Position numbers and translations under genes: made by a program
The notes under the pieces: model-generated
Databases searched by the model: none
The model's input: only the letters and a program-made list of their open reading frames with translations
What the model was told of the DNA's origin: nothing
Assembly (NCBI GenBank): GCA_051362555.1
Contig: CM120640.1
Location: 26,832,225-26,896,224, forward strand
DNA length: 64,000 bases
Direction of reading: 5' to 3'
Origin: Lingula anatina
Taxonomy: Eukaryota; Animalia; Brachiopoda
Shown: in pieces, positions 295-59,800 of the stretch
Position numbering within the stretch: position 1 is the first letter of the stretch
Layout: every line of letters begins with the position of its first letter

Positions 295-5519
<5,225 letters not shown>

Positions 5520-12701: not shown

Positions 12702-13523
12702 ATGGCGTCAGAAAAGATGTTGCGAGATCAGCTGAAGGCACTCAGGGAGTGTGTGACCAAGAACCGAGTGGCATTGGTGACAGACTTGAATGTGGAAGGT
12801 CTTCTGTTGACTTTTTTGCAGCAACAGTCTCTTCTGACCGAATATCAAATAGATATAATAAGGGTACAGTATAATCAATTTATTGTTGTACCTGTATTTA
12901 GAAGCTTGAACAGTCTACATGTAGTTTGTTTCTTTAATTTGTCTTTTTCTTTTACTGGGAAGGGGAAAGGGCACATGTGGGGGGGGGGGGGGGGGTTACT
13001 TGCTTTCAACTAGATTTTTACCTTCTCTAACATAGGGCAGCTGAGTGATGATATCAACTTAATGCAAAAATTCACTCTAAACCTCTGTATTGAGATATCA
13101 GACGGAACCAGTTTAGTAAATCCTCTTGTCAAAGTACTGTACAGCCACCTACCCCACTTGGGGGTTTCCCAAAATGGTACTTTTTGTTGGACAAAGGCAA
13201 GAAAACCCTGTATCAAATGAAGTTTACACGTACAATTTTAAAAAGACCTAAGCTTACAAATACTCAGAAGTATTCATTGATCACTATATCTTTTTAAGAC
13301 ATTTCTTTTGTTGTAATTCCTTGTACAGTGTACCAAATATTATGCACATGATGCTTATGTATAACATTAAAGTTATGATTTTTGTACCTGCAGGCAGAGA
13401 AAACCAGGCATGACAAAGCTGAGAAAGTACTGGATTTCATCATAACCAAAGGTCCAGATTTTTTGGACAAGTTCATTACAGCATTGAGAGAAACGAGCCA
13501 AGACCATTTGGCTGACTTACTTG
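12702..13523 (+). other. CARD domain of paralog 1 (2 exons)
   Basis: ...VTKNRVALVTDLNVEGLLLTFLQQQSLLTEYQIDIIR|AEKTRHDKAEKVLDFIITKGPDFLDKFITALRETSQDHLADLL, a typical CARD pattern (NRxxLVxxL, LTxxQxxxI, T..KA..LLD.I..KG..F..AL..Q.HLA.LL). Confidence 0.88.
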
Positions 13524-15764
13524 GTATGTACTGTATATTTATTAACATTGCATTTATTCCAATTTTAAAACTTGTATTTTGTATTTTTGACTCAGAAGGT
13601 GTACATTTGTATCCTGTCAGCTGATATCATTATTCTTAGATGGCTCTCAGTTGCAAACATATAGGTCATGAACATAGCATTTGAGGGATTGAAATATCTT
13701 GACATACTTTAAGTGTTATTTGTAAGGTGATTGGAGTTTTATATTTATAGAGACATCAAAGAACTCTGCTCCACAGATTCCAGTGAGCATTCCAGGTGTT
13801 AAAAAGGAAACACCTTATACACACCCAATGACTGCTCCTGATACAAAGGCAGGGCATTTCTATAATGCCAGTACAATAAGTGTCCATCATCATTATGGGT
13901 CTGGAGATTCTGGTCGTGAAACCATCTACCAGCGAGAGCAGGCCATAAATCCCATGCAGATGGCATCTCCCCCAGGTGCAGTTAAGAGAAAGCCAGTTGG
14001 GCTGGTTGGATCTCCTGCTGTGAAGTTGCCACAGCGGGATTTAAGAGAGGAAATGGAAACAGAGCGCATTGGACAAACATTCCAGATTTTGGCAGAAGGC
14101 CCAAGAATAAAAGATTTGAGAGAAAAGCTGCTGTTAAGTATAAAAGCCCATGGCATGTCTTTCCATGGAGAAACACCTATGGATGGAAACTGTTTCTTTC
14201 ATGCTGTAGCAGATCAGTATGTTCGACTAGGACTTCAGCAAGGAATTACGCATAGAGAAATCAGAAAACTAGTTGTCAGTTATCTACAGGTAATCGTTCA
14301 TAATTAAGAAAACCAGAAAATTTATTTCAGTTAAAAAAATATGACTTCACACATCCTAAATGGACTTAAAAAGTGCATATCTTGCCACACCTGTACCAGA
14401 TATTCTGAGTCCAAGCAAAAGTATAACAAATTAAAGCCCATAAGGACAATCTGCAATTATAAGTTTAAGTTTAAAAATGCAGTTTTCCTAAGAGTTGTAA
14501 TATGTATTAGCCAAAGTTGTAAGCCAGGAGGCAATATAATTGAAATACAAATGTTGGTCTGATACCGCAGAGAAGGATGTTTTTGAAATTTTTTTAATTA
14601 GAGTGTGTTGGACACGTACATTACTGTATTTAGTGTGTTTCAGATTGATTATGAAGATGATAGTCAAATATTTCTCATGCTAAAATCATTTATACATATA
14701 TAATATATTGAGATCTAAGATCAGTGCATAAAAACTCTGTAAATGTCCTTGGAGCAATAATTTATCTATGCTACTGTACATACAGAAACTTTTCTATTTA
14801 TGGCCATTTTTTTTTTCTTTTTAAATTCATTTTATTTACTAATTTATTTTTTGTGATGGCACATGAAACTTAACTCATCTTGATTGTCCTTTTCAGCACT
14901 ACCAACAAGAGTACACACCACATATTAATGGTTCTGACTGGCCAGCATACGTCAGCAAAATGGCTCAGGATGGAGCTTGGGCTGATGACCTAACGATTGA
15001 CGCAACTTCTAAGGCCTTGGGGCGTAAATTGCTTATAGTATCCAGTTCTCCAGGGGCAAAAAATGGTGTCTTACAAACTATTTTTAACGGAAATGCTGAT
15101 GGGGAACCTCTCATGCTTGGTCGTTACCATGAAAATTATTATCAGAGTCTTGAAATGGCAAATGAAACAGGTTAACATTTTCCTTATGCATTTTTGTTTA
15201 AGATACATTTTGAGATGTGAAAGAAGTGTAATTTAAGATACATTTTGAGATGTTAAAAAAGTGTTAAGATGTTCTAAAGTTTTCAGGTGTTTGAACGTAC
15301 ATTCTAACTCTGATGAAAATAAGGATTGTGTAGCATCATTCCTTTGTCTCTTTTATTTTCACTAAGATTGGGCATCTATTCATCTTTCTGATTTTGAGTT
15401 GAATTCTTTTTTAATCTCAAGTATTTTCTTTATTTTTATCATATGCAAGATCTAAAAAGATTACAGACAGACTTGAAGTCAACCAGCTTCTCTGGCCCGA
15501 TGGAAATGGAAACGACGGATAGTAGTGGGACAGACTTTGTCTCCCAAATAACAGGTGTATTAGAGAAAGAAAAGGCAGGAAACAGGCAGACATCTTCAGT
15601 TTCTGCACCAGACATTCAGAGCAAGCCAAAACCAGAATTTAACCAAGCTATCAATGCTTATGAATTCAGTGAGAAGGACTTGGAATTGGTCACTAACTAT
15701 TTTTCTGAAGAAATTGCCTCTGAAGAAAAATGTGGGTTTGGTGTAGTGCATAAGGGTAGGTTGC

Positions 15765-15842
<78 letters not shown>

Positions 15843-18800
15843 AAGAGAGATAATGTGTTCATTATGTCAACCCTAATAATTTTTTCCAGTATAATCATAC
15901 AGAAAAGTGCATTTTATTATTTTTGGAAAAAAAGAAACATTTATTAATAAAAATTGTTAAAGATAATTTCAATGATGTCAGGCAAATGGTCTTGAAAATT
16001 AACTGTCAGTGATACTGGTAAACAAGTTTACAAAGAATACAAAGTGATGAAGTGAGGAAAATGTTTGATACGTTTTAGAGCTGTGATACTACATACTATA
16101 TGTGCTCACCTCAATGCAATTCTATGATTTTTATTTTCATTGCTCAAGGTGTTTTAAACCTTGAGCAAATACATGGATTGGAAGTTGCAGTTAAGAGACT
16201 TGCTGATAACAATGATTATCAAGGAACGCTGGAATTTGACAGGGTAAGTACAATTTACAAAATATTTTGAAAAGTTAATGGGAATATGTGTTACAGAAAG
16301 AGAAGTTAATGAAATTTTCCAAGCAAATTATATTATTCATAATAGTATTTTTGCTAGCTCTTCCATTGTTATACTTCATGTAAAATGTTATTAGTACCGC
16401 CAGCGTGTATGGTGGCGGTACTCATGATTGTAGTACTGACCACTCTCGTACAGCTCCACCGGCTCTGCAGGATGACGTGGGATACAAGTCACCATTACCG
16501 CTTCTCCTCCTGGACTGCTAGGACCTGTGTCCCAATCTCTTGGGTTTAGGTCACATATAATGTCAACTTGAACCCCCCTGTTTTTTTTTTTTTTTTTTTT
16601 TTTCTTTTCATTTGGTGCATTGGCCTGGGCATGACACTCAAAATTTTTTTAAAATTCAATGCTAAATATCTCCCAAACCAAAGAAATTATGGGAAAAATT
16701 GCTATTGAAGATTGATTGAAAGTCATATGTGGAGATTCCAAAATATGTGAAATACTCCAAAATTAGCAGAGATATGCCCATAGTTACTATTGAACTTGAA
16801 TGGGAATTCATATACTGGCAATCTAACTGTGACCTTGAAATTGACATTTGACCTACATTTCATGATGAACCGCACTTTGCAAATTTCACGTCCCATAGTA
16901 TATATGGGTGTATCTCTGCCAGTTTTTGAAATATAAGGGATACACCCATAGTTCCTATTCAAACATACACAAAATAAAAATATCATGTTGCCCATGTAGT
17001 CCAATGTCAACGACGAAATAAAAGGCAACACCACTAAACCTTAATATAAACAAACCTTAAAACATTGTTTCCATTACAGTATGTAAATACCTTAGATAGG
17101 AAGTCCTACTTTCAAAATCTTACTACAACCTTGAATTTGACCTTTTACTTTTCCCCACAATTTTTTTATAAATGATAATTACCTACAAAAAATGAAAACC
17201 CTAGTTTAATTACTGCATTTCCTTCAGCTTGTCAACCACAACACTACAGGTGGTGCCCCCCCTTCTTTTTCTTTCTCATACGAATACGCTTACTGCAGCT
17301 GGTGGTACAATACCAGGAGGCAGTATCGCCTCTCTGATCTAGTTTGATATGTTTTTGTGCACTGGTATTGTTCTAGGAGAAGGATTGGGCTAAGAAAAAG
17401 TATATTTATCTTCTGACTGCTATTGGAATTTGTGAGCAGTTAAAAGGGTAAGTAATTATATGAAGAAACATTTTTATCCACGTTATCAGTGTGAGCTCTT
17501 TTTAAAGATTTAAAAAATCGCTCTCTTGTTATGTCTTTTGACATTATTTTTTCATTATTAATTTAAAAATTGGAAAATGAACACACAAAGTAGATTTTTA
17601 CAACGCAGTCTTCTCTGCCCTGCTTTCACCTAGGATATGTGATTGAGCAACTTGTCCCTTTTTATTTTATGAAAAATGGGGGAATATCCGTGTCCTGTAT
17701 TTGTCATGTTTTGTTTGGTTGTGAAATTTCCAGTGTTCATATCAACCAGACTGAAACAAAATCAAGGAAATTTTATGTGCAGACACAGTAGATGCTGTAC
17801 ATATGGGCCATCACCTGTGTGGGTCATTTGCTGGCTAAAATGCAGGCTTAGTGGGTTTTCAGATTTATCATGTTTTTTTTTTCTTTCTTTACAGTATGTT
17901 CAATCATTATTTTTCTTGTTCTGAACACTTATTTTTCAGGCAATGTGTCTGTTTAAGCTAATCTTGCTGGAGTTACTGTGGGCCTTAAATGACTTACAGT
18001 TATTCCTTAAACTTTTGTGATAATTTTTCTCTATGCTTTTGATAATTTGAATATGGGCCAAAATTTACATATACTGGAAGCATTGAATAAGATTATTGTA
18101 ATGTATTATTTTTTCAAATTGCTTCTCTTTATGATAACTGACTTTATAACCTACAAGGTATTTTTTCAGTGAATACTCCAAGGCAGTGATGACAGTATAC
18201 ATGAAAGGGGGAACTTTGAAAGATCGACTTGAACAATCAAAGATTAGTGGTGAAAGTTTGGACTGGAAAACTCGCCTACGTATGAGTGTCCAGTTGGCTG
18301 ATGCAGTGAAATTTCTTCAGTCGGATGACCAGTAAGTTTTATTTACTTATCTGACTTGAAGGTACTCATAGACTTCTCTGTTTTTTAAACAAAGTTTATT
18401 CAAAATAAAGCACTAAAAGCATATAATGCTCTCTCTGGGGACCAGGAAAATTACAAAATACGCACGTGTGCACACACATTCACACACACAATTGCACACA
18501 CAAACACACACACAAAAGCGGGAAAAAAATAAAGATATGAAAAGGAATAAGAATATTTTTAAAATATATACATATATATATTTATATATAGTCATGACAA
18601 ATGTATATAGTCATGACAAATGAACTTATTAACAACTAATTTTATATATAAGCATGTTTGATATTATGTGATATTTTTCTTTGTACCATTATTATTATTT
18701 TCTACATATTCATATTCATGTTGCTGTACTTCTTTGTTTGGTATTTCAGAAGCAAGTGCATAGTTCATAAAGACATCAAATCCTCAAACATATTCCTGGA

Positions 18801-21800
18801 TGAGCATGAGAACATCAGGCTTGGAGATATGGGATTTGCAAAGATGTATTCTTTGAACTTTAAAAAGACCACAATCACCAAAAGTAAGACTAAATGTCTC
18901 TAGTTTAATGCTGTTTTATGTTAAAGTTGGTACACATGAAGTTTCTGTACATAAATAGAATTACAGCCTATTTGTTTTTGTTTCATGTTAAAATTAAAAT
19001 CTGAAGGTCTGTTCCAATTTCATCAGGTAACACCCGTCTGCACATCTACACATGCACAAACATGAATATATGTATAATTATTTTCAGCTATTCCTTTTGC
19101 TGCTGGCTATACAGACCCAAAACTTCATGAGGGACTTATAACCAAGACTACTGACTGTTACAGTATTGGGATAGGTAAATGTTACAAGTAAATTGTTTTT
19201 AGTATGTAGCATCAAGGCTTGTGGATAACTTTGTATCTTAAAAAGTGTCAATTATCTTTCTATTTTTCATTTTACTCAAATCAATACATTTCTCTTTACA
19301 AGTGAAGATTTATAGTTTTACATTGTAAAAAATTACTGGAATTGAACTTTTAGTATATTTTTATACATGGAAAATTTTGTTTAAGTGCTTGAGGAATTGT
19401 TGACGGGTGTTCTTGCCTCTGATCCTGACCCTAGTAGAGATAGCTCAGTTTCTCTTCACCTCTCCTGGAACAATTCTGGTGATGAAGAAAAGATTTTGGT
19501 AGAAAAGGGGGTTGAGCAGGTGAGTGTTTAATCTTTATCTTAAAGATGGGTCTGGCACAATTATAATGAGATATAATACATAAGACTGAATGAGTTTTTT
19601 TTTTTTTAATATCCATGTTGGACAGTGCATGTTCCTTACCTGTCAACACTGGAAATTGCTACAATGTCATGGGAGGTTGTGTGGCATTTGCAAACAACAC
19701 CCCCAACTCTACCATAGTAACTTTATTATTTTTAGACTCATTTTATGATCTCAAACAACTGATGGCAAGATCAGAAGATTTGTGGCCTGAATGCTGAGGT
19801 CTGGATTGAAGTGCCAAATCTGGAAACCCCTGGTAAAATTTGGAGAGTTGACAGGCCTGAATTTTTTTATAATGACAAATAATACTCTGTATTGCAGGGG
19901 TGGCCCAGAGAAATAAGCACAGAATTTGCTAAACTAATTAAGATGTGCAAAAAGGGAAAACCTGTGAAAAGAATCAAAATTGAAGAACTGTATGATGCAT
20001 TGTTGAAACTTTACAAGGTAAGTAATTCCTATTGACAAGTGAAGTTTAGATTGTATAGATTTTGTAAACTATATATTGTTTAATATGTAAGAATAAATAT
20101 ATAAGTTGGTGTATTCCTTTTAAATACATAAAGCCATTTTTTGCTTGGTCTAAAACCTAGTTGGTAAATGTTATCAAATTATCACAAGTTATTTTCACAT
20201 GCATTGTATTTGCCTGAAGAGGTACATTCTTATTAATTTATCTGTGTCATCATATTTTTGTTTACTTCAAATGTACTGAGTACTTCTGTTTGATAAAAAG
20301 ACAGGTTCCTTTAGAAAGTAAGCATGATCAGGTCATTTTTCCAGAACATTTTGTAAATTGTTGCATTGTTTTTGTCTATTTGGTGTCTGCATATTTGCCA
20401 GTTTGGATAAAGTAAAACCAGAATTAAAGAGGCACTTATTCAGTGACAATGTTTGGTCTTCTAGGGAGGTGTTGAAGGTGCACCTGTATATGCAGGGACT
20501 GGTGGTAAACCCATTCAGTCTGAGAAATGCCTCTACTGTTTGGTACACCAAGCAGGTATGTAAACTATATTACTGTAGAACATATTGAAGCTTGAACTAC
20601 AAAGATGAAAGGAGTCATATTGATTAAAGGATAATAGTCATATAAAAATCCATTTCTCGAATTCTGAAGATCCAGCACTTAATCTATACACTACAGTTAT
20701 GTTTTAATCGATCCCCGTCATTTAAAAATTAAAAAAACAATCTATTAGTAGACAAAAAGCGTTTTAGTAAACTTCACCTCAATATGCATAAATGAAGCAA
20801 CAGATCTGGGTCACGTGGTACTGTGACGACAATGTGGATAAAGGTCTAAGACTCAACTGAGCTGCAAGTGCATGCAGACAGAGAAGTTTAGGAAAGTTGT
20901 GTCGAACGGGGTTGAGCAATTTTCGTTATGCCTCAGTGTGTTGCCGTGGGATTCACCAAAATCGCAGCACTCGTTCACAATCTTTTCTTTGTCTGTGACG
21001 GTCTTCCGTGACTTAGTAACTTCGGTGACAATTGTTGCGATGCGATGAGATCATGGTCACCTCAGGTGGTTTAGATCATATCAAAAGCTGATAGTCTTTC
21101 AGATTAACTGTCATCAGTTGGCAAGCTTACTAATTGTTGATGCATTTTAAATGCATTGTAGTTGACCAAGAGCTCGTTAACAATAAAACCTGTTAATTAT
21201 GCACCGCTGCACTTCCCAAGCCAGGTAATAACAAGTATCAAACTCGTCTTGGTGGGCTTTCATATTTTTCAATATATCTCATTTATTTCATGGGGTTATT
21301 TTATTAGTACCACCAGCGTGTACGCTGGCGGTACTCATGGTTTTAGTCCCGACCCGTCTCGTCCGGCTCCGCCGGCTCCGCGTACTGGCGCCGGATACAA
21401 GTCACCGTTACCGCTTCTCCTCCTAGACCGCAAGGACCCCTGTCCCCATCTCTTGGATTTAGGTCACATATAACCTCAACTTGAACCCCCAGGTTTTTTT
21501 GTCTCAGTCGGTACATTGACCTGGGCGTGACGCTCCTTGAAATGCACCCTTGTCAAAATTTTTGAAAATTCAATGCCAATTATCTACCCTACGGAAGGAA
21601 TTATGGGAAAATTTTCTACAGACGGCTTTCCAAAAGTCATATGTGTAGATTTCAAATATGCCCTTGGATTTGACCTTTGACCTTAATTTCAAGGTCAAAC
21701 GGGCCAAAATTTTCAAAAAAATGAAATTTTTTTACGAAAAAAAATATTATTTGCACTGTTATTCAGACACTACACAGACTTAACCAATAATTATATTGGA

Positions 21801-24800
21801 AAGTGTTACCCTTTGGGTCATCTTTCATCTCTGTGAATTTGGGGTCAATCGGTGCATTTTCACAGGAGTAGCGGCCATAAAATACCGAAAATGAAAACTG
21901 TCTCTAATTCGGGAACCGTTAATGCTAGCGACCCGTTCTTTTTTGCATTTTGTAGAGCATGTAAAGCCCAACACTGAGAGTGGTCTCGGTTTTTTTGTAT
22001 TTCATATGGTTTTCGTGTTATGCTGTATTAAAAAGTACTTTGTGGTGGCACATTTTTTAACTCAGAATTGTAACATTTAGTCCCTTATATCTCCAAAACT
22101 GGCAGAGATAGGTCAATAGTTATTATTTAAGTTGAATAGGAAGTCATTTACTTGCAATCTAGATGTGAGCTTGAAATTGACCTTTGACCTACTTTTCACC
22201 ATGAACTGAACTTTGCAAATTTTTGTTCCCTTTTATCTCCAAAACTGGCAGAGATAGGTCAATAGTAACTATTGAACTTGAATAGGAGGTCACATACTGG
22301 CAATTTAACAGTGACCTTAAAATTGACCTTTGACCTACTTTTCACCATGAATTGAACTTTGCCAATTTTTGTTCCCTTTAATCTCCAAAACTGGCAGAGA
22401 TAGGTCCATAGTCACTATTAAACTTGAATAGGAAGTCACATACTGGCAATTAATCAGTGACCTTAAAATTGACCTTTGACCTACTTTTCACCATGAATTG
22501 AACTTTGCCAATTTTTGTTCCCTTTAATCTCCAAAACTGGCAGAGATAGGTCCATAGTTACTATTGAACTTAAATAGGAAGTCATGAACTGGCAATTTAC
22601 TGTGACCTTTAAATTGACCTTTGACCTTCCTTTTACTATGAACTGAACTTAGCAAATTTTCGTTTACCTTTATCTTCAAAACTGACAGATAGGTCCATAG
22701 TTACCATTGAACTTGAATAGGAAGTAATACACTAGCAATCTGTGACCTTGAAATTGACCTTTGACCTACTTTTTATGATGAACTGCTTTTTGCATGTTTT
22801 CTGGCCTTTAAATCTGCAAAATTGGCAAAGAAATGTCCATGGTTGCTATTGAACTTGAATAGAAATTCATATACTATGATATTGAAATTGACCTTTGACC
22901 TACTTTTTCACCATGAACTGAGCTTTGCATATTTTCTTGCCTCTCATATCTTTAAATCTAGCAGAGATGTGCCCATTGTTTCCCCTAGGTTTTCTCTTTT
23001 GTCAGCATATATGCACCATTGACAACACATTTCAAGGAAAACCAATAGGCCTTTTGTCTAGAGAATACAGTAGTGAGCAAGGGTAGGCAAATGCAAGTCA
23101 ATTTGAAAATCTGCTTGATTGTATCATTTTTAGTTATATTTTTTGCATATTTTGAGAACTCTTGTTGATTGCATCTTATAGAGCTTGTCAAACACCAGAC
23201 TGGTGATGGTGTCCCTTTTAGGAGGGGGGGGGGGGGTCCATACGAATGCGCTTACTCCAGCTGGTGGTACAATATCTGGAGGCGGTATCGCCTCTCTGAT
23301 CCTCTAGTTGGTATTTGTAAATGACGTTAAATATCAATATTTAAACAATTAAGATCAAACACGGTCGCGAACATTAATAAAAGAAATTGCTCTCAGGGTA
23401 TCTTGAAGCATGCGTATGCCCAGGCATTACTTCCTTGGAAGAAAACGTGTTGAGGAAAAACAGGAAAAAGAGCATTATATTAAAGAAAAAATGGGAACTG
23501 CTGTAATAAAATGGTTCGTAATCCTAATACTTTTATGCTTTGAAGATTTGTTTCTGAAGGTTATTTCTTCTGAAATATTAAATAATTTAAAAGGTTTATC
23601 ATTTTATAACTTGAAACGCAAGTTCTGCGTCTGTATGCAAAACTTTTTGCAGATTTGTAAGCTTTGTCAAACCCAAAAACAGGTAGCAGATCAAGGTAAA
23701 AGAGTATTGTTTGCTACGGGTAGCACGGAAAAAAAATCATAAATTTAATGTGTTTACTAAATGTGCAGTTTTACGTACGTTAGTATATTTTAAATTATGC
23801 ATGGAGATTTAACCTGGTAAGGGATGTAAGAAAGCCACAAACGGATTTTTTAAAAAGAATGTTGGGTGTAAAAAAAGAGCACTACTGATAACTTAGTTCA
23901 TTGTATATAACTTAGTATGTTATGAAAAATGGGAGATACCCAATTCTTTTAAGTATGAGCCTACAATTTTTTAATATATTGATTTAAATCCCCTCTTCGA
24001 AAAATTGTATTATAAAACCGTGCTATAAAGATCTACTCAAGAAAAAAATTGCTAGGCTAAAATTGAGTACGGAATGAACTGGAGACCCTTGGCTTGTCAT
24101 TAAGTTTTCACGAAAATATGTCAGATAACTTTATACTGTCCTTGAAAGAGTAAAGATTGAAAGATAATTTTAGACAAATAGACAAACTTTGACGGAGGAA
24201 ATATCAACAAAGAGTAAAGGGCTATTGTGCCAACATCTTGTTGAAATTTTTACACTGCAATTCTATTTAAATAAGCTAAGGAACTAATTGCCAAATTTAG
24301 ACTTTCATCACACAACAGGGGCGTAACCAGACCTGCAAAAGTTGTACGCACAGATTAAAAAAAAGTACAAGCACGTACAGCAAAATGTAGACTAACGCAA
24401 AACATGAAGGACAGCGTAATCACAGCAAATGTACCTCATATAGTAGCTTAATTTCCATTAATAATAAAATCATCATTTAAGTCAAAAATATTCTCGCGAT
24501 TTAATAAATATTCTAATGTACCCAGAACGGTATATTTATTTAAAAGGAGGCTAACTGAAATATTGTTTTATTATTTGTTTGTGAAAATTGCTCATGTCAC
24601 CCTGTTAGTTTGGAGGTCTAAGCTGGATCAAGTCCATGTTAAAATTCCTATGAAGCTGTGCAGGAAAAAATCTTCCTTTGTTTCTCTAGCTCCTCGATAA
24701 ACCTGGTGTTCAGATTGTATCTAGTACCCCCAGGTCTGCGGGAGCTGCTCTTTGAAACCAACGCACAGGTAGATTTTTACCTGAGATAAATATCGCCAGC

Positions 24801-26915
24801 CATTTAACCCTCTAATTAAGAGGTAAAGGAAGTTCCAGTTAGATGGATGATTAAGATAGGACTGGTAAAGGGCACTGTTTACCTCTGTTTAATAAAAGTA
24901 TGCAAGACGGAGTGTCAGCGGTTTAATAAAATTAATTGAATTTCACAAATAACATGGACCTCATATGCAGTAATCAACAGAACCCTTAACTCATTCAAAT
25001 GCAATGTTTTATACAACTTGGGATAACCATAATTAAATGCTTGTTAAAGAATTGACTAGACGGGAAATGGTTTTACACAGCTTCACGAGGATTAAGACCC
25101 CTCGGGTAAGAGATTTGAATGAGTATAAACTTTTATCAGAAGCCAGAGAAGTCATCTTACAGGTAGACAATGCAGCTCAGTTTGACAGCTAAGCATGCTC
25201 TGTTCTCCGGTGGCTTGATTGTCGTCATCAGACCACGTGACCACGTAGCTCATTAACTCCCAGGCCGAGCAAATAGGACGTTTTATAAAGCCAAAAATTT
25301 ACAAAATGAGCTTTTAATTTGTGTATTTGGACAAAGATATCGTTAATTGGGCATGTTTTCTGAAGAATATGTTCCGTTGAGGCCATTATGACGGCATGAC
25401 GCAAATCCTTTAAGTTATACTTTTTGTGTGTATTTATGAATTTACCATAATGATAAAAATACTGTATAAATGCCATGGGCATTTTCTATTTCAGCAAACA
25501 GTCAGCTCAGTTGTGGATGCAAGTTCCTTTGTACTCACTGCATAGTTGAACGCACCAAGGAGAACAAGAGCATATGGTGCATGTTGCATATGGAAGAAGT
25601 TGAATTTAAAAAACGTAATATGTTTGTGTGTACTGTATGTGTATGTGAAATTCTCCAGTTTCATATTTGCAAAAATCACATCACTTTACAAGGCTTACTT
25701 GCAAATCAATAAAAACTGAATGAATCTGAATATCTTTTTACTTAAATCATATTATAAAAAGCAGTATCAAGAAGGTTGGCAGTACAAATGACAAATCATG
25801 AAGATGATTTTCTCATTCGCCTGCAAGTGTAATCTGTGTCCTTAATTTCTTTTTAGAAAACTTATACTGTGATGGAAATTTTACCAAGCTCTTTGATGCC
25901 AGTTACCCAGTGGTTTCACTTGTCAAGTTGATCAATTCCAAGATAGACAAGCATTGGAAATCAGTTGGCCTGATAAAAGTCATAGATAGATGTGGTGAAG
26001 ACCGTGCCGTTGCCACAGGGTTCAAAATAGGTGGAAATTATTTGATGACGAATCGTCACATTGTTAACAGTTTCGGAGAAGGTAAAGTGATGATGCTAAC
26101 AAGATGTGTTTCAAAGGTCTTTTGAACTAAAAGTTTAAATGTATTTATGATGGTTTACTGTTGCATATCAAAACATTTTATAAGGGTGCCTTGTAGTATT
26201 TGTGAAAACTGAGAACATGCTTTTATTTAAAGCTCATTATGATATCTTTAGAAATACACATTGAAGTATTTTGACAATTGGGTACTAAATCAGGAGGTGG
26301 GGGCTGGGGGAATATTGCATTTACTTCATTTTTTCCTGCTCTACAGGTTTCCGAGGAGTCAAGGTAGAATTTGGATATTTGCAACAAACTTCAAGAACAA
26401 CAACATATAAATTTGTCAATATGCCATGGTACAGTGAAGTATTGGATGCAGCTTTGTTCCACATTCACAACGTAGACAGCCATGATGTTGTACCAGATTT
26501 AGACTGTGATATAGCAGATGTCGAGCCAGGAAAGGATGTCTGTATTGTAGGACATAATAAATGTGATCCATTAAGATATGACCCAGATACAAAAATACTT
26601 AGCAATTTCGATGTTCAAAAAGACATAGATTTCACACTGAAAACCTACCCTTCAGCCAGTTTTACAAATGCATATGATAGAAATCGACAGTTTATGAAGT
26701 CAAGTTTTATGCATGGGGCATCTGGGTCACCTTGCTTTGATGAATATGGTAACCTTTCCCTAATGTATACTGCAGGTTATCCTGATAACTATAAAGAGCT
26801 GCGTATGGCACAAACTGTATTTGAAGAGGGTGTTAAAATGAGATGCATATATGAAGAGTTAAAGAAAGAAAAGCCAGAGTTGGTGTCAGATCTGTTCCCA
26901 AATGTCCGCATTTGA
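12702..26915 (+). CDS. Multidomain protein, paralog 1: CARD - OTU-like - Pelle/IRAK-like kinase - variant RING - FAM111-like trypsin serine protease (~1072 aa)
   Basis: Coding exons 12702-12863, 13394-13523, 13751-14289, 14897-15170, 15450-15755, 16149-16243, 17377-17447, 18170-18331, 18750-18883, 19088-19174, 19386-19519, 19898-20017, 20465-20555, 25495-25614, 25857-26081, 26347-26915. All introns are GT-AG and phases are compatible; total 3219 nt = 1073 codons with no internal stop. Every non-OTU exon is conserved in paralog 2. Confidence 0.85.
14076..15156 (+). other. OTU-like cysteine protease (deubiquitinase) domain, paralog 1 only
   Basis: TPMDGNCFFHAVADQ (Cys codon 14191-14193), HREIRKLVVSYLQ, YVSKMAQDGAWADDLTIDATSKALG, LMLGRYHENYYQSL. 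One internal intron at 14290-14896. Confidence 0.88.
15655..20017 (+). other. Pelle/IRAK (RLK-Pelle-like TKL) kinase domain, paralog 1
   Basis: YEFSEKDLELVTNYFS, GFGVVHKG, VAVKRL, EFDRE, YMKGGTLKDRL, LDWKTRLRMSVQLADAVKFLQ, IVHKDIKSSNIFLDE, RLGDMGFAK, GYTDP, DCYSIGIVLEELLTG, WP. Confidence 0.88.
16388..17344 (+). mobile_element. HINE family A (Helentron-associated, DINE-1-like), internally deleted copy in a paralog 1 kinase intron
   Basis: 5' TTATTAGTACCGCCAGC plus palindrome; 3' subTIR GCTGGTGGTACAATA, stem-loop GAGGCAGTATCGCCTC and CTAGTT end; about 2 degenerate central repeat units. Confidence 0.8.
20628..25409 (+). mobile_element. Kolobok-like DNA transposon (decayed), 4.8 kb, in the RING intron of paralog 1
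   Basis: TTAA TSD at 20624-27 and 25410-13. Termini AGGATAATAGTCAT...ATGACGCAAATCCT (imperfect TIR, AGG/CCT). The empty site GATTAAGTTATAC is present in paralog 2 (~62122-62134). Possible decayed THAP start MPQCVAVGF at 20928. Confidence 0.8.
21301..23309 (+). mobile_element. HINE family A, full-length, nested in the Kolobok-like element
   Basis: 5' subTIR and palindrome (TATTAGTACCACCAGCGTGTACGCTGGCGGTAC), CCGGCTCCG mini-repeat, about 7 central ~146-bp repeats, 3' subTIR GCTGGTGGTACAATA, hairpin GGAGGCGGTATCGCCTC, end CTCTAGTT. Confidence 0.85.
25950..26915 (+). other. Trypsin-like (Trypsin_2 / FAM111-like) serine protease domain, paralog 1, with intact triad
   Basis: SVGLI...ATGFKIGGNYLMTNRHIV (His 26057-59), SEVLDAALF (Asp 26445-47), IVGH, FMHGASGSPCFDEYGNLSLMYTAG (Ser 26721-23). 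The motif layout resembles the FAM111A/B protease. Confidence 0.88.
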
Positions 26916-47889: not shown

Positions 47890-50800
47890 ATGGCATCAGG
47901 AAAGATGTTGCAAGAACAGCTGAAGGCACTCAGTAATTGTGTAACCAATAACCAAGTAGAATTGGTGACAAACTTGAATGTGGACGTTCTTCTGTTGTCT
48001 TCTTTGCAAGAACAATCTCTTCTGACACAATATCAAATTGCTGTAATAAAGGTAGAGTAATCAATTTATTGTTATATTAAAAAGCTTGTACAGTAGTTTG
48101 TTTCTTTGTTTTTTGCTTTTACTGGAAGGGGGAAGGGCACATGTGTGGGGTTTACTTGCTTCCAACTAGATTTTTACTTCCAAGTTTTCCACCAGATGCC
48201 AGCTGAGTGATGATTTCAACTCTGCAAACATTCTCTCTAAACCTCTGTATTGAGATACCAGATGGAACCAGTTTAGTAACTCCTCTTGCTAAAGTTCAGC
48301 CACCCACCTGACCTAGGGGTTTCCCAAAACCACTACGTGTGTGTGTGATGGAAGGGGGGGGGGGGCATAGGGACTGTTCACAATATATTTTATCGGCTTA
48401 ATGCCAATGCACCAGGACTTGCTGACTACAATCAGTTTTAACAGACTGACATGCCTCCTCTTGTTAACAGCGTACTCACATAATCACCAGCTTTGATTTA
48501 TGATGTTGTTGTGTTACATTTGCATGGAGTAAAGCCCCCTTTACACTGGACGGCGTCCTTTCTGCGTCCAGCAGTACGGCCCCATTTGAGAGTTAAAAAA
48601 TTATAATACTTTTCATGCCGACAACTGGCCGATCACTGAGCATTCATTCTGCTACAAAATCAATGCTCGTGCCTCCTTATTAAGACCACAGCGATGCCAA
48701 ATTTCATGGTCGCAGAAAGGACGCCGTCCAGTGTAAAGGGGGTATTAGTGTGCAGTAGTAGTGGTCCTTCAAATACTAGTATATCATACACTAGAGTAAG
48801 TAGTTAAGATCAGAGCAATTAATTGACTTGATCACCTGCCAAGAGATTGGTCAGGGACTAGTTAAGTGTCAGTGCCTGAGCAGTTGGTAATAAAGGACTC
48901 CGAAGAAAATCAGACATGCTGAAAAATTTTCAGAATGGCCAGACATTTGGACTGGCAGTAATGAAAAATTTGCCGGACCGAATGGATTTTTGTCAGGCCG
49001 AAAATCACCCTATTTGTTCGAGACAGATACTACCAGTACGTTTAGGTAGCTTACTTTGTTTGTGGATGTGATAGGTTTTAAATGGATGGGAAAAACACTT
49101 TGGGTTTTTTATAATTTTATTGGTGAATTATGTCTAATGATGAATGTAAATTCAAAATTGTGGTTCTTAAAACTCTTGTCAGTCCTTTAGACTGACCAAG
49201 TCCAATTTTTTACCCGTCCAAAAAAATGCTTGGTCATGACCGATCGGACTGACAGTTTCAGCAAGTCTGGAAGATAGATTATGCTAGAAATGTAATGTAA
49301 TGTGGCTTCAAATGGTGTAAGACACAAAGCTGTTCATTTTTAGCTAGATATATATGGGAGCTGAGACATGGGTGCGAAGTAGAAGCAGATTTTCCAACAG
49401 CATGGTAAGACAATGTCTGTACATATAGCCATCACCTGCGTCTTTTGTTGCTGTTGTGGAAAACCATTGTTCTTTTTGGCTTGAAACTTACAGAACTGAT
49501 GAATATCCATTATACACAGGTCAAGTTAAAAAATCAGCTTTTATTGTGCATTGTGTAATAAAGTATCAAAAATGGAAAGGAACTCATATCATTGCAGTTC
49601 GTCAGATTCAATCATTCACTAAGTTAAGAATCTCAGAATGGAACAAGTTGGACATTTAAATTTGTTCTATTGATATTTTTCCTTTGACAACATATTTTTT
49701 AATTGATCATATAAGAATTACAGTAAATCGCTTATTTTGTTTTATGTAAAAAAGGTGTTGAAAATGGAAATAAACTCTTTTCAATACAGTTTTCTCTTGT
49801 TTAGATTTTGGGATTTTCAAAGTGTGACTCTGAACTCTATGGGCTAGACACATTTTCTGAATATCCATGATAGTTTTATTTTATCATTAAAAAACTGATG
49901 GTTATTATGCTGTTAAGCATTGTGTAATATTGCATCAAAATTGAACAAAACCCTATTTTGGGCACTGCCTCCGTAGTGACCGTGAAAGGACAACCATGTC
50001 ACTTGCTTTTTTCACACTTAAAGGAAAGAAACATAGGACTGAAATACAGCTTCAGTTGGAAAATCTGTCTCATTAGTTAATTTTCTGGAAGTTATAGAGT
50101 TTTTTTTGTGAAAATTTTTATCTTTCACATACTGGAATTTTCAATGTGGGACTTAGAGCTCCCTTGGGCATGAAGCCCAGTGGTAATCAAATTTTCTTAA
50201 TGTCCATGTTTTTAATAGTAGATATTTAAAAATTGGTGGTATGTATACAGTTAATCATTATGTAATGGTGCATCAAAATTGACAAAAACCTACTTTATGC
50301 ACTGCCACCATTAACTTTATGGAAAGAAAACTGTTACTTTCTATTTTTTCAACTACATGTAGTCTTACAAGAATGATTCTTAGGATTGACATACAGCTCA
50401 TATTAGAAAACCAGCTCTATTAGATTATCATTTTTATTAAATTTATGCATTTTTTGTGAAATTTTCATTTTTCTCATTCTGGCACTTTCTAAGTATACAC
50501 TTGAACTCTGATGGGCCTGAAGCCTTATGCTTTTACTTTCGTCAGTGTTACCTGTTGTGCATAATTAAGATTTGATGTTGACCATGCAGTTAAACAAAAT
50601 GTATTATTGTATCAGAATTGGTAGTCTCCTATTTTGTGCATTATTGTTTTGTGCTTTTCTTAAGGTGTGACTTATGGGCCTGAAGACCTTTGAATGGGTC
50701 AGTCTGTAAATTTCCCTTGGGTATCACTAGGCTAAGTTCAGAGTTATAAAGTCATTTGCCTAATTAATAGGCCATTAAATGAGATTACATAAAGCAAACT

Positions 50801-53800
50801 TGTTGATATTTCCCTGTAAACTCCCAAAGGTTAAGCTCTCTGCTAGATTAATAATAAGGAAGCAGTGATAATTATGCAGGTGAATTTTGTTTAATATTGC
50901 AAATAAGTTTTTAATATATATATATATATATCAAACTCAAAGATTAAAAGTTTGAATAGCAGCTTCATTGGAATTATATTTACCTCTGCCAAGGAGGTTA
51001 TGTTTTCACCCCTGTTTGTCTGTCATCAACATTACTGAAAAAGTTATGTACCGATTTTGATGAAATTTTCAGGAACTGTCAGAAGTGGGTCAAGGAGGAC
51101 AATGATTAGTTTTTGGTGGTGGTTCGGATCAATAATCTATCAATAATCAATAATAATAAAAAATTGCTGCCTTGGCAGAGGTCTGCACTCTCAGAGTGCT
51201 TTTCTGGTTTTATGTTTTCCTTTTTAATTTTTTCTCAAACACTGGCATTTGTGACTTTTAACTCCCATCCGCCTGTGGCTCTGCACATTTTCTGTATTTC
51301 CACATAAGCAGTTGTATATTGGTTTTTATGTCTTTAAACATTATGTAATATTATTTTATGCACTGTCATCATTTTCAAATATTGGGACTTTCATCATGTG
51401 AATTTGAACTCTCATGGTCCTGAAACTGTAATCTTATCGAAGGGATGGATTGAGACCATCTTCTGGGTCTTCCGGAAGACAGTCAGGTTTTTAAGTTTAT
51501 ATTGACCGATATCTATTTTTTTTTCTGTTGGAAGACCATCAAAATGGAGGATGGATCAACATAGATACTTTGGAATACTGTCAGAAAATATCTCTGGGTC
51601 CGCTCCTGTTATTGACCATGTTACCTGTTGTGCATGATTAAAATTCAGTGATGACTAACAGTGCTATATATAAGCATTATTTATTATTGCATCAAAATTG
51701 ACAAAATGACCTATTTTGCATCTTTATTTTCTGTTTTTTGTCTGTACATATGACAGCTTTGCTGCCTTGTTTTCATTTGGCATTTTGAGCAGATAATGTT
51801 TGTAAAAATTTGGGTCATATGAAAACCTAATACAAAGATTGAAAGTGAAAAATTGTGCTTTTATTATTTGTCATCTTTCTTTTAAATAACTAGCTTCATA
51901 GACTGACAGCTAAAAATGACTAGCCGGCTTTATGTTTCACACTGTTCGACATCACATATGTTGCGCAATTTGTCTTCTCGAGGGTCTTTTATTATAAGAA
52001 CCAACTTGGAAATTATTGGTTGGAATTCATCACAGTTGGGTCAGAGTTCGGAGACGTGCACAGAAATAGCAAGGGAAATATCTGTGAATATTTAATGAGC
52101 AATCAATGTATTGGCCCTTGGTAGAGGGTACTTTTTGTTTGACAAAGGCAAGAAAACCTTGTATCAAATTAAGTATACACATATAATTTTCAAAAAGACC
52201 AAAGCTTACAAATGCTCAGTGGAATTATTTGATCACTATCTCTTTTTAAGACATTTCTTTTGTTGTAATTCCTTGTACCAATACGTTGTACAAAATATTA
52301 TGCACATGATGCTTATGTATACCATTAAATTTATGATTCTTTGTGATGATGTACCTCTAGGCAGAGAAAACCAGGTTTGACAAAGCTGAGAAAGTACTGG
52401 AATTCATTCAAACCAAAGGTCCAGATTTTTTGGACAAGTTCATAACAGCATTAAGAGAAACAAGCCACGACTATTTGGCTAACTTGCTTGGTATGTACTG
52501 TATATTTATTAACGTTGCAATTCTAAAACTTGTATGGGTATAATATTTTTGACGTGGAAGGTGTACATGTGTATCCTGTCAGCTGATATCATTATTCTTA
52601 GATGTCTCTTAGTTGCAAACATATATAGGTCATGAACATAGCATTTGATGGATTGAAATGTCTTGACATACTTTAAGTGTCATTTGTAAGGTGATTGAAG
52701 TTTTATATTTATAGAGACGTCAAAGAACTCTGCTCCACAGATTCCAGTGAGCATTCCAGGTGTTAAAAAGGAAACACCTTCTACATTCCCAATGACTGCT
52801 TCTTATCCAAAGGTAGAGCATCATTATAATGCCACCACAATAAATGTTCATCATTATGGATCTGGAGATTCACGTCATGATACCATCAACCAGCAAGAAC
52901 TGGCCAAAGATCCCATGCAGTCGGCACCTCCCCCAGGTGCAGTTAAAAGAGAGCCAGGTGGGCTGGTTGGATCTCCTGCTGCGAAGTTTCCACAGCGGGA
53001 TTCAAGAGAGGAAATGGAAACTGGGTGCATTGGACAGGCAAATGAAACCGGTTAACATTTTCATTATGCATTTTTATTAAAGATACATTTTGGGACGTGA
53101 AAGAAGTGTAATTTAAGATACATTTTGAGATGTGAAAGAAGTGTAATTTAAGATACATTTTGAGATGTGAAAGAAGTGTTATGATGTTCTAAAGTTTTCA
53201 GGTGTTTGAGTGCACATTCTAACTATGATGAAAATAAGGATTGTGTAGCGTCATTCCTTTGTCTCATTTATTTTCACTAAGATTGGGCATCCATTCATCT
53301 CTCTGTTTTTGAGTTGGATTCTTTTTAATCTCAAGTATTTTCTTTATTTTTATCATATGCAAGATCTAAAAAGATTACCGTCAGACTTGAAGTCAACCAG
53401 CTTCTCTGGCCAGATGGAAATGGAAACAACGGATAGTAGTGGAACAGACTTCATCTCCCAAATAACAGGTGTATTAGAGAAAGAAAAGGCAGGAAACAGG
53501 CAAATGTCTTCAGTTTCTGCACCAGACATTGAGAGAAAGCCAAAACCAAAATTCAACCAAGCTATCAATGCTTATGAATTCAGTGAGAAGGACTTGGAAT
53601 TGGTCACTAACTGTTTTTCTGAAGTAATTGCCTCTGAAGAAAAATGTGGGTTTGGTGTAGTGCATAGGGGTAGGTTACATTTTTTGTCAAGAGAGAAAAT
53701 GCCTTCATTATGTCATCGTAATTCATTTTTTCCAGTATAATGATACAGATAAATTACATTTTATTATTATTTTCGCTTAAACTTTTTTTTATATTTTTAT

Positions 53801-56800
53801 ACATTTATTGACAAAAATTGTTAAAGATAATTTCAGAGATGTGAAGCAAATGGTCTTGAAAATTAACTGTCAGTGATACTGGTAAACAAGTTTGTAACAG
53901 AATACAAAGTGATGAAGTAAGGAAAAAAGTTTGATGTGTTTTAGAGCTATGATACTAAATATCAATATATGGATAATATGTGCTCACCTCAGTGCAATTC
54001 TGTAATTTTTTTTTTTCATTGCTCAAGGTGTTTTAAACCTTGAGCAAATACATGGGTTGAAAGTTGCAGTTAAGAGACTTGCTGATAACAATGATAATCA
54101 AGGAACACTGGAATTTGACAGGGTAAGTGCATTTTTTAAAATATTTTAAAAAGTAAATGTGAGCATCTGTTACAGAAAAAGAAGCTGATAAAATTTTCCA
54201 TTCAAATTCATTAAGGGTAATTATTGTACCACCAGCGTTAGCGCTGGCGGTACACATGGTTTCGGTCCCGTCCGGATCGTTCCGCCGGCTCCGCCGGCTC
54301 CGCCGGCTCCGTTGGCTCCGCCGGCTCCGCCGGCTCCGCCGGACGGCTACCGTTACCGCTTCTCCTCCTAGACGGTAAGGGCCCCCGTACCCATCTCATG
54401 GATTTAGGTCACCTATAATCTCAACTCGTTCCACGTAAAATTTGGGCTTTGTCGGTATTGGGGTCTGGGTGTGGCACTCATTGCAATGCACCCTTGTCTA
54501 AAAATGGCAAAATTAAATGCTAATTATCTACCCTACGGAAGGAGTTATGGGAAAAATTTCTATAGACAGCTTTCCAAAAGTCATATGTGTAGATTTCAAA
54601 TATACCCTTGGATTTGACCTTTGACCTTTACTTCAAGGTCAAATGGGCCAAAATTTTCAAAAAAATGAAATTTTTTACGAAAAAAATTTTTTTTGCCCTG
54701 TTATTCAGACACCACACAGACTTAACCAATAATATTATTGGAAAGTGTTACCCTTCAGGTCATCTTTCATCTCCATGAATTTGGGGTCAATCGGTGCATT
54801 TTCACGGGAGTAGCGGCCATAAGATACCGAAACTGAAAACTGTCTCTAATTCGGGAACCGTTAATGCTAGAGACCCATTCTTTTTTGCATTTTGTAGAGC
54901 ATGTAAAGCCCAACACTGGAGGTGGTCTCGGTTTTTTTGTATTCCATACGGTTTTCGAGTTACACTGTATCAAAAAGTACATATTGGTGGTAAAAGCAAA
55001 ATGTGGAGTACGGTAATGGATAATAAATTTTGAACTCTGGAAAAATAAAACATAAGGCTTGGCAAAGCAGACAACTTGTGTTCAAAAATGACATTATTTC
55101 ATCAAATTTGAACTTCTGAAACTTCAGAGCACCTCCTATTTCAAGAATTTTGACCAAAATGACATTTTCTTTGTTTTAATTAATTTTTTCTGTACGAAAT
55201 TTAAGGCACATTATGGTAACTCCAAAATTATAACATTTAGTCCCTTATATCTCCAAAACTGGCAGAGATAGGTCCATAGTTACTATTGAAGTTGAATAGG
55301 AAGTCATATACTGGCAATCTTACTATGACCTTGAAAGTGACCTTTGACCTACTTTTCACCATGAACTGAACTTTGCAAATTTTTCTTCCCTTTTATCTCC
55401 AAAACTGGCAGAGATAGGTCCATAGTTACTATTGAACTTGAATAGGAAGTCATATACTGGCATTATAAATGTGACCTTAAAATTGACCTTTGACCTACTT
55501 TTCACCATAAACTGAACTTTGCAAAATTTGCTTCCCTTTTATCTCCAAAACTGGCAGAGATAGGTCCATAGTTACTATTGAACTTGAATAGGAAGTCATA
55601 TACTGGCAATCTAAATGTGACCTTAAAATTGACCTTTGACCTACTTTACACCATGAACTGAATTTTGCAAATTTTGCTTTCCTTTTATCTCCAAAACTGG
55701 CAGAGATAGGTCCATAGTTACTATTGCACTTGAATAGGGAGTCATATACTGGCAATCTAAATGTGACCTTGAAATTGCCCTTGGCCTACTTTTCACCATG
55801 AACTGAACTTTGCAAATTTTGCTTTCCTTTTATCTCCAAAACTGGCAGAGATAGGTCCATAGTTACTATTGAACTTGAAAAGGAAGTCATATACTAGCAA
55901 TCTAAATGTGACCTTAAAATTGACCTTTGTCCTACTTTACACCATGAACTGTATTTTGCTTCCCTTTTATCTCCAAAACTGGCAGAGATAGGTCCATAGT
56001 TACTATTGAACTTGAATAGGAAGTCATATACTGGCAATCTAAATGTGACCTTGAAATTGACCTTTGACCTACTTTTCACCATGAACTGAACTTTGCAAAT
56101 TTTGCTTTCCTTTTATCTCCAAAACTGGCAGAGATAGGTCCATAGTTACTATTGAACTTGAATAGGAAGTCATATACTGGCAATCTAAATGTGACCTTAA
56201 AATTGACCTTTGACCTACTTTTCACCATAAACTGAACTTTGCAAATTTTGCTTCCCTTTTATCTCCAAAACTGGCAGAGATAGGTCCATAGTTACTATTG
56301 AACTTGAATAGAAAGTCATATACTGGCAATCTAAATGTGACCTTGAAATTGACCTTTGACCTACTTTTTATCATGAACTGAACTCTGCTAATTTCTTTCT
56401 CTTTTAACTTCAAACTTGACAGAGATAGGTCCATAGTTACTCTTGAACTTGAATAGGAAGTCATATACTGGAAATTTACTGTGACCTTGAAATTGACCCT
56501 TGACCTACCTTACGAAGAACTTAAATTTGATTGTACCATATATATTTTTTGCAATAGTTTAAAAATTCTTGTTGATTGCATTTTTACAGCTTGTCAAGCA
56601 CAAAACTGGTGGCTGTGTCCCTTATTTTGTGTATGTGGGGGTCTATACGAATGCGCTTGCTCCAGCTGGTGGTACAATATTCGGAGGCGGTATCGCCTCT
56701 CTGATCCTCTAGTTTATGATAGTATTTTTGCTAGATGTGCCATTGTTATATTACATGAAAAATGTTTTTTGATTTGTTTTGGTGCACTGGTGTTGTTCTA

Positions 56801-59800
56801 GGAGAAGGATTGGGCTAAGACAAAGTATGTTTATCTTCTGACTGCTCTTGGAATTTGTGAGCAATTAGAAGGGTAAGTAATCATATGAAGAAACTTTTTT
56901 ATCCACATTATCAGTGTGGGATCATTTTAAAGATATAAAAATTGCTCTCTTGTTATGTCTTTTTACATTATTTTTTCATTATGGATTTAGAAATTGGAAA
57001 ACGAACACACAAAGATTTTTATAAAGCAATCTTCTCTAGCATGCTTTCACCCACAATTAATGATTGAGCAACCTGTTTCTTTGTATTTTATAAAGAATTA
57101 GGGAATACTCATGTATTGATCATGTTTTGTTTGGTTCTGAAATTTCCAGTCTTCAGGTCAATCAAAATGAAATAAAATCAAGGCAATTTTATGTGCAGAC
57201 ACAGTAGTGGCTGTACATATTGGCTATCACCATTTAATGGCTAAAATGCAGGCTAAGTGGGTCTTCAGATTAGTACTGGGGTTTTATTTACTGTTTGTTC
57301 AATGATTTTTTCTATGTTTTGGACACTTATTTTCCAGGCAATGTGTTGTTTAAGCTGCAACCTGCTGGGGTTACTGTGGGCCTTTTAATGACTGACTGTT
57401 GTTCCTTTAAATTTTGTGATAATTTTTATCTATAATTCCATCTTGCTTTTGATAATTTGAATACTGGCCTAAGTGTACATATACCTGAAGTATTGAATGA
57501 GATTATTGTAATGTATTATTTTTTTAAATTGTTTCTCTTTATGATAAATTTGGTCAAGCTTTATAACCAACAAGGTATTTTTTTCAGTAAATACTCCAAA
57601 GCAGTGATGACAGTATACATGAAAGGGGGAACTTTAAAAGATCGACTTGAACAATCGAAGATAAGTGGTGAAAGTTTGGACTGGAAAACTCGCCTACGCA
57701 TGAGTGTCCAGTTGGCTGATGCAGTGAAATTTCTTCAGTCAGATGACAAGTAAGTTTTATCGACTTATCTGACTTGAAGGTACTCATAGACTTGAACACT
57801 TGCTAAAGACTTCACTGTTTTTTAAGCAAAGTTAATCAAAGTAAAGCACTAAAAGCAGTATATGCTCCCCATGAAGACCAAGAAAATTACAAATTACATG
57901 CGCATGCACGTGAGAGCACACGCACACACACACACACACACACACAAAAGCGGAAAAAAGAAAAGGAATAAGAATATTTATAATATATATATATATTTAT
58001 AATATATATATTTATATATAGTCATGACAAATGAACATAAGGCTAATTAACAACTAAGCAGATTGATGATTAAACAGGAAATAAATCGGTTATATTATTT
58101 ACACAAAAAAGAAAATCTTAAAAAGTACATATAATACAGAGATAAATTAGGTACTGTTCAAGTAATTTCAAAGTTGTCAAGTAGGAACATAGAAATGGTA
58201 ACAAGGATCTTTTCATTTTGTCCATCAGCTTGAGATATATGTCCATGAAGAAACAATGACAGCTTTTTTTTCACTTTTTTAAGAGACCACATTTCCCTGT
58301 GTTTTATTGTCAATTTTTTGTTAAGGGGCGGGTATAGGGCATCTGAAAAAGAAGTGAAAAGGAGTATCAGGGGCACCACAGGTGCAGTTTATCTGTACAG
58401 TTCTGCTTCAAACAAATACCCAACCCTCACGCTGTAGATATTTCTATTGTCTTCTATTTAGGATTAGTGCAGTGGTTGAAAGATTATTTTTCAGGGAATT
58501 TTTTTTAAAAGAAGGGATTGAAGGTAAAGACATTGGTACATACAAGCATGTTTGATATTGTGTGATGTTTTTCTTTGTACCATTATTATCATTTTCTACA
58601 TATTCATATTCATGTTGCTGCATGTGTTTGTTTGGTATTTCAGAAGCAAGTGCGCAGTTCATAGAGACATCAAATCCTCAAACATATTCCTGGATGAGCA
58701 TGAGAACATCAGGCTTGGAGATATGGGATTTGCAAAAATGTATAATGTGAAGAGTGGAAGGGCCACTGTTACCAAAAGTAAGACTAAATGCCTCTAGTTG
58801 AAGGCTGCTTTGTGTAATAGTTGTTCATTCTTTGGGCACCCATATGAGGTTTCTGTACATAAAAGCATTGTTAGACTAAATGACTTTTATGTTTGTATTT
58901 TATGCACACTCACATGAATGCATGTAAAACTATTTTCAGCTGTTCCTTTTGCTGCTGGCTATACAGACCCAAAACTTCATGAAGGGGTTGTAACAAACAC
59001 TACTGACTGTTACGGTATTGGAATAGGTAATGGATGCCAATAAAACTGAACTGTTTTGATCTTGGTATCAGGGGTTGAGTATAACATTTTCTATCTAAAA
59101 AAACTTTCATAAGTTTTTTCTACATTTTTATGTACAGACACAGATGTGTCTGTACATATTGCCATCATCTGCGTCTGTCGTCGCCGATGGCAATGGCGAT
59201 GCCGATGCCAGCGCCGTGCACTTTCCTTTTAAACACGATAAGTGGAGGGCAGTTTTACTTTTTGGCTTTATATTTACAGAGCTGATGAATATTCATAAAA
59301 CGCAGGTCAAGTTCGAAAATCAGCATGATCGGGCCATTATTGTAGAAGTTATGCTGTTTTTTCACTTTTCAGCATATTTTTCAGCATATATGCAACACTG
59401 TAAACACAATATAAGAAAAACAGATAGGCCAATTGTCATTAAACTCACAGGATTGGTCAATCTTACTAAAACGCAGGTTGAGTTCGAAAATCAGCATAAT
59501 CAGGCCATTATTTTAGAAGTTAAGCTGTTTTTTCCCATTTCCTCAGATTCAATTCTTAGGCATGTTAACAGTCTTATTATTTTACTAATAAGATACATAA
59601 AAGTGTTTGTTTGACATTTCCTGCATCTTTACAACATTGTTAGTTGATTATGTAAAAATGATGGTAAACTTGTTATCGTGTATTGTGTAATAAAGTGTCA
59701 AAAATGGAAATAAACTCATGTCATTACAGTTTGTCAGATTCAATCATTCACTATGTTCAGAATCTCAGAATGGAGGAAATTGGACATTTAACACTATTCT

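Follow-up and report, generated by a model that had tools for sequence, protein, structure and literature searches.

A divergent RING-like finger between an IRAK-like kinase and a FAM111-like protease in tandem CARD genes of Lingula anatina

Two tandem genes with a split zinc-finger motif

We analysed a 64,000-nucleotide (nt) stretch of the genome of the brachiopod Lingula anatina (GenBank assembly GCA_051362555.1, contig CM120640.1, positions 26,832,225 to 26,896,224, forward strand), hereafter the window, in which positions are counted from the first nucleotide. Two tandem paralogs lie on its plus strand, 3′ of the end of a PI-kinase gene. Both are of the same Lingula type, with the domain order CARD, OTU (paralog 1), IRAK/Pelle-like kinase, finger and FAM111-like protease. 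The finger, a cysteine-rich segment encoded by two small exons between kinase and protease, is the subject of this study (Table 1).

Table 1. Coordinates of the paralogs, their domains, the finger exons and the intron insertion within the window
Feature	Position	Strand	Details
Paralog 1 gene	12702-26915	+	16 exons, 1072 amino acids, no internal stops
CARD, paralog 1 exons 1-2	12702..13523	+	Pfam
Linker and OTU domain, paralog 1 exons 3-4	13751..15170	+	DGNC at residue 245; Tyr (TAT codon near 15138) in His column
IRAK/Pelle/RLK-like kinase, paralog 1 exons 5-12	15450..20017	+	
Paralog 1 exon 13 (91 nt, phase 0 to 1)	20465..20555	+	Linker and ligands 1-2 (C-x2-C)
4782-bp insertion in paralog 1 intron 13	20628..25409	.	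TTAA both sides, AG...CT termini; absent from paralog 2
Paralog 1 exon 14 (120 nt, symmetric phase 1-1)	25495..25614	+	Ligands 3-8
FAM111-like trypsin-fold serine protease, paralog 1 exons 15-16	25857..26915	+	His876, Asp917, Ser1009
Paralog 2 gene	47890..63617	+	15 exons, 909 amino acids, no internal stops; CARD-kinase-finger-protease
Paralog 2 finger exon A (91 nt)	61964..62054	+	
Paralog 2 finger exon B (120 nt)	62209..62328	+	After 154-nt intron

An initial annotation of the window had proposed that the 91- and 120-nt exons join to encode an eight-ligand motif, with the same peptide in both paralogs. In each gene AG/GT borders flank the two exons, whose phases are 0-1 and 1-1, confirming an in-frame join with the predicted peptide C-x2-C-x11-C-G-C-x3-C-x2-C-x12-C-x2-H, comprising seven Cys and one His, at residues 760-800 of paralog 1 and 601-641 of paralog 2. 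The two finger peptides are identical (47/47 residues), and their 211 nt differ by one synonymous change, with 0 changes in the 120-nt exon. The annotation also held that the open reading frame (ORF) track had missed the finger, which is explained by the finding that none of the six unspliced frames of the window holds an eight-ligand RING-like pattern. When the whole modelled protein was shuffled, the finger pattern appeared in 0 of 20,000 shuffles, a test of Cys clustering and spacing only. Skipping the 91-nt exon would shift the frame and bring a stop ahead of the protease, and reaching the protease in frame thus needs this exon.

The annotation had further called the finger cryptic, which was an overstatement. 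The exons count as already modelled, because the RefSeq models XP_013387807.1 and XP_013388096.1 carry both in frame with all eight ligands; only the domain label is missing there. XP_013387807.1, also from L. anatina, was the sole protein retrieved in a search with the protease exon against longer proteins (1 of 268 candidates), and XP_013388096.1 belongs to the same cluster. Pfam matches on XP_013387807.1 comprised CARD, OTU, kinase and Trypsin_2, and identity with paralog 1 was 96/97 residues in the CARD, 128/128 in the linker and 138/140 in the OTU domain. The RefSeq finger is identical to the window copy at 38 of 47 residues, the nine changes sparing every ligand (chance probability 0.16). 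All ligands, including the Cys at position 4 and the His at position 8 that the annotation had pointed out, are kept in the four sequences available (two paralogs, two RefSeq proteins). A homologue search with the finger region, which relied on shared exact words rather than an exhaustive HMMER search and leaves room for distant relatives, retrieved XP_013387807.1 only.

Resemblance of the finger to RING domains

For comparison, we drew a control set from viral contigs, in which an open frame with an eight-ligand RING-HC was present at 73 of 122 loci, 62 of them unique. The DNA pattern left the gap between ligands 2 and 3 free, the filter allowing 8-14 residues, while ligand 4 was His in all controls by selection. 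All 63 aligned members of this set matched Pfam zf-C3HC4_3. The gap of 11 between ligands 2 and 3 of the finger is the mode of the x3-type RING-HC controls (63/73), and its gaps of 2, 11, 1, 3, 2, 12 and 2 lie within the RING consensus C-x2-C-x9-39-C-x1-3-H-x2-3-C-x2-C-x4-48-C-x2-C, as given in two publications (PMC9547421, PMC3223060). The likeness to IAP/MIB-type RING-HC fingers (PF13920, zf-C3HC4_3) put forward initially therefore stood as far as spacing is concerned, with gaps 2, 11, 1 (Gly), 3 and 2 in common, but no significant profile match accompanied it. The finger also departs from this type in its ligands: RING-HC calls for His as its fourth ligand and Cys as its eighth, whereas Cys and His take these places in all four sequences, and His at ligand 8 was seen in 0 of 73 controls.

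Two other classes share single traits with the finger. RING-C2 or C4C4 fingers (VpRFP1 and the putative C4C4 of RTEL1) likewise have Cys at ligand 4 in a C-x1-C step (PMC3223060, PMC11344278), although the consensus published for the class has x13, x1 and x4 gaps and a Cys end, compared with x11, x1, x3 and a His end here. The plant SHI/STY 'C3HC3H' finger, which carries a RING-like label, ends in His as the present one does (PMC10576376), but its spacing and transcription-factor context differ, a comparison made by label and not by sequence. A literature search by label found no description of the Cys4 plus His8 combination. We also scanned viral contigs for a Cys7His RING (C-G-C...C-x2-H, TGT-Gly start only), obtaining at least 120 loci, at least 26 with an open core and at least 1 with the full pattern, the last being a low-complexity Cys run; none of the matches listed was a natural Cys7His RING.

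The profile-profile comparison that the initial annotation had suggested gave a divided answer: the best hhalign alignment in 1075 columns landed on the finger, with ligands 1-6 in register and without gaps, but its probability of 0.5 and E value of 0.11 against the RING controls are non-significant. Several further results also weigh against a RING. At E≤10, the finger drew neither a Pfam RING match nor a PDB match. On an in-house RING profile it scored 9-12 bits, compared with 41-52 for members scored in-sample, and shuffles with the ligands held fixed reached its score in 272, 177 and 256 of 2000 cases (p about 0.09-0.14). Its nearest Atlas cluster was zf-C3HC4_3, which speaks for a RING, but the score of 0.76 is below the 0.9 line for a lead, and ten Atlas matches of the same clan were also drawn by a third of shuffled proteins. 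Because ligand-fixed shuffles equal the score of the finger, the RING signal lies in ligand spacing only. Structure prediction was of low confidence and uninformative. AlphaFold2 gave a mean predicted local distance difference test (pLDDT) score of 36.6 for the finger region without an alignment and 28.5 for the complete protein from an alignment of two rows, in which even the kinase failed to fold; a predicted complex of two finger copies and four Zn returned a score of 0.01 against a mark of 0.32, which carries no weight in either direction. We consider that the finger probably adopts a RING-type fold.

We propose that the finger is a divergent RING-type two-zinc module with a structural or pairing role between the kinase and the FAM111-like protease, and not the ligase half of an A20-like enzyme (probability about 0.5). 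A serious if doubtful competitor is that the finger, its ligands swapped (Cys4, His8), works as a RING E3 and would ubiquitinate its own protein or partners after CARD clustering. IAP or TRAF RINGs act as ligases beside RIPK/IRAK kinases; the finger has IAP-type spacing and keeps a hydrophobic residue at ligand 2+1 and at ligand 7+2, Leu in both cases, and the OTU domain in the same protein suggests a ubiquitin context. Set against this, three residues typical of the controls, at positions that face the E2, have all been replaced: Pro after ligand 7 (64/73) and the linchpin Arg after ligand 8 (61/73) are both Met in the finger, and Ile/Val two residues after ligand 1 (60/73) is Tyr. Moreover, the non-ligand residues do not exceed shuffles in their fit to the RING profile, and paralog 2 has dropped the OTU domain. 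The linchpin Arg is conserved in most RING/E2-Ub structures, yet in the same account RNF38 R454M shared second place in activity, after wild type, with R454K (PMC12326332), which counts against a purely structural role. Judged on its residues, the finger would have a lower chance of E3 activity than a canonical RING; as a Met linchpin kept this second-tier activity in RNF38, such activity is nevertheless possible.

It is rather improbable that the eight ligands bind zinc in another topology, such as a treble clef of the B-box, AN1 or PHD kind or a pair of independent sites, so that the likeness to a RING would be one of spacing only. A terminal C-x2-H is known from B-box and extended PHD fingers too, every RING sequence test fell below significance, and the hhalign alignment spans only ligands 1-6. 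However, the gaps 2-11-1-3-2 fit RING-HC exactly, neither the whole protein nor the single exons gave a B-box, AN1, PHD or LIM match in Pfam, and the Atlas yielded no usable named match once its ten RING families were skipped.

Very improbable, in our judgement, is that most splicing bypasses the 120-nt exon or that the finger is a relic in decay, if not in both genes then in paralog 1, whose intron carries the 4.8-kb insertion. The phases at the two ends of the exon are equal, and a frame of 1032 amino acids would stay open without it; on the other hand, both RefSeq models include it, it has no change between the paralogs and so fewer than the flanking introns, and the ligands are all kept in the four sequences.

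The surrounding protein and a proposed role for the finger

The Cys motif of an OTU protease is present in paralog 1. As the OTU exon had no useful PDB match, we took OTU-like controls from viral contigs, where 73 of 120 loci were open, 67 were unique and 14 reached E<1e-6. The alignment column that we take to be the catalytic His, by the OTU H-Y/W-x-S motif, holds His in 8 of these 14 controls (4 gaps, 1 Asn, 1 Ser) and Tyr in paralog 1, XP_013387807.1 and XP_013388096.1. In paralog 2 the OTU domain was lost by an in-frame deletion, after which exon 3 runs straight into the final bases of exon 4 at about 53037 (53010-53050), with the exon 4 donor site and the finger left in place. A Pfam scan of XP_013387807.1 gave no zf-A20 match at E≤10. 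An OTU domain without its His would at most bind ubiquitin chains, and would be dispensable.

The initial annotation had likened paralog 1 to A20 (TNFAIP3), which also combines an OTU domain and zinc fingers in one chain and whose ligase part is an A20-type finger rather than a RING. That chains are taken off by an active OTU and put on by the finger could draw on the catalytic Cys motif beside a RING-like finger, and on a His that precedes the Tyr by three residues and might substitute, but such an editor is barely credible and goes unsupported because the OTU His column is Tyr and the domain is deleted in paralog 2, and the finger is RING-like rather than A20-type.

The kinase found its best PDB matches in SYMRK, BRI1 and IRAK4 (E about 1e-23) and keeps the Lys of VAVK, the Glu of alphaC, the catalytic Asp in H(K/R)D and the Mg-binding Asp in DMG, in line with an IRAK/Pelle-like kinase. 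Departures common to all four sequences are the replacement of the first Gly of the Gly-loop (15720-15755) and a Lys at the position of the APE Glu (19088-19110); paralog 1 has HKD where paralog 2 has HRD. A death-fold domain fused to the kinase is a trait in common with the group of IRAK4, Pelle and plant RLK kinases, although here a CARD replaces the death domain, and a protease and finger are added. RIPK2 pairs a kinase with a CARD.

For the protease exon, the only significant PDB matches were to FAM111A (E 1e-7), and the Trypsin_2 domain with its His-Asp-Ser triad (Table 1) agrees with a FAM111-like protease. FAM111A has a PIP-UBL-UBL N-terminus, whereas CARD, OTU, kinase and finger stand in its place here. 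The activity of FAM111A requires dimerization through an N-terminal helix (PMC10920703). Invertebrate FAM111A-like proteins lack UBLs, and FAM111A has been proposed to have started out as an antiviral protease (PMC9798293), and in bacteria death-like domains are fused to trypsin peptidases (PMC8195603).

On this basis, the host protein is likely an immune protein with a proximity-activated protease. In the mechanism that we envisage, the CARD would cluster the protein on a death-fold platform, and this clustering, perhaps gated by the IRAK-like kinase, would pair two protease domains. Some 20 residues separate the finger from a downstream segment that we equate with the FAM111A dimer helix; the finger may thereby fix or tune the geometry of pairing, and the paired protease would then cleave itself or a target. 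The FAM111A match is confined to the last exon and does not reach this segment, so that the equivalence with the dimer helix is inferred, a point against the pairing role. A more elaborate scheme would make the protein a one-chain immune switch, an equivalent, among serine proteases, of initiator caspases in which a CARD-assembled intracellular FAM111-type protease is gated by an IRAK-like kinase and joined by a RING of a new Cys7His class (active E3 or dimer clamp) and a pseudo-OTU that reads ubiquitin chains; we regard this full version as unlikely.

A homologue search with the whole of XP_013387807.1 returned the protein itself and 12 others, each of which has a kinase domain and spans 10-30% of the query. 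No other protein with this architecture appeared in the homologue searches, which matched shared exact words and were not an exhaustive protein search; because shared words were required, they say little about absence. A literature search that covered few subscription journals returned nothing on these loci or this architecture. The architecture of the whole protein outweighs the finger in interest: a lophotrochozoan FAM111-type protease that shares its chain with a CARD and a kinase of IRAK type provides a simple test of whether death-fold clustering can activate it, as for caspases. If the finger is a RING, its Cys4 plus His8 set went undetected by the Pfam models scanned, and similar fingers may have been overlooked in invertebrate immune proteins.

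History of the paralogs and the intron insertion

The flanking introns differ between the paralogs at 37 of 1105 sites, compared with 1 of 211 in the finger exons (Fisher p=0.022). Because the introns differ at so few sites, the identity of the fingers is weak evidence on its own, and it may partly stem from a recently homogenized 3′ block. Exons 12-15 carry 5 synonymous changes and 1 non-synonymous change between paralogs 1 and 2. The last protease exon (26347-26915 versus 63061-63617) is more divergent than these, with 11 synonymous and 29 non-synonymous changes and a 12-nt indel. The ratio of non-synonymous to synonymous change (dN/dS) between the paralogs was 0.66 in the last protease exon, 0.58 in the CARD and 1.03 in the linker. 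Relaxed or diversifying selection might have acted on these three segments, although no dN/dS is clearly above 1.

Similarity along the genes is a mosaic. The N-terminal half of paralog 1 is near-identical to that of XP_013387807.1 and the finger much less so (38/47), whereas the two window paralogs share a fully identical finger and only 73 of 97 CARD residues. Gene conversion of the 3′ block, or unequal crossing-over there, is suggested by this pattern.

The initial annotation had reported that the finger exons are 4.9 kb apart in paralog 1 and 154 bp apart in paralog 2, in agreement with the introns of 4939 and 154 nt that we found. TTAA occurs at 20624 and 25410 around the insertion in the longer intron, and just once, at 62124, in the empty site of paralog 2. 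The termini of the insertion are AG and CT, its ends are complementary at 10 of 14 bases, and it contains a 25-nt subterminal inverted repeat (20809-20833 and 25218-25242). Kolobok elements are defined by TTAA duplication and 5′-RR / YY-3′ termini (PMC9587614), both of which the insertion shows. It contains no ORF of the size expected for a DDD/E transposase, the longest on the plus strand being of 103 and 111 amino acids, the latter without a Pfam match. These features point to a Kolobok-like element, non-autonomous or decayed, and the difference in intron length would come from this transposon-like insertion and is no feature of the finger itself.

Nested repeats inside the insertion recur elsewhere in the window. 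One dispersed element, which harbours a tandem repeat of about 146 bp, lies at 22081-22968, 36361-38144, 55241-56530 and 16750-16886, thus in several introns as well as in the Kolobok-like insertion. Upstream of paralog 1, at 636-5516, are the 3′ exons of a PI3/PI4-kinase gene, with PI3Ka and PI3_PI4_kinase matches below the cut-off; this gene is probably PI4K-alpha.

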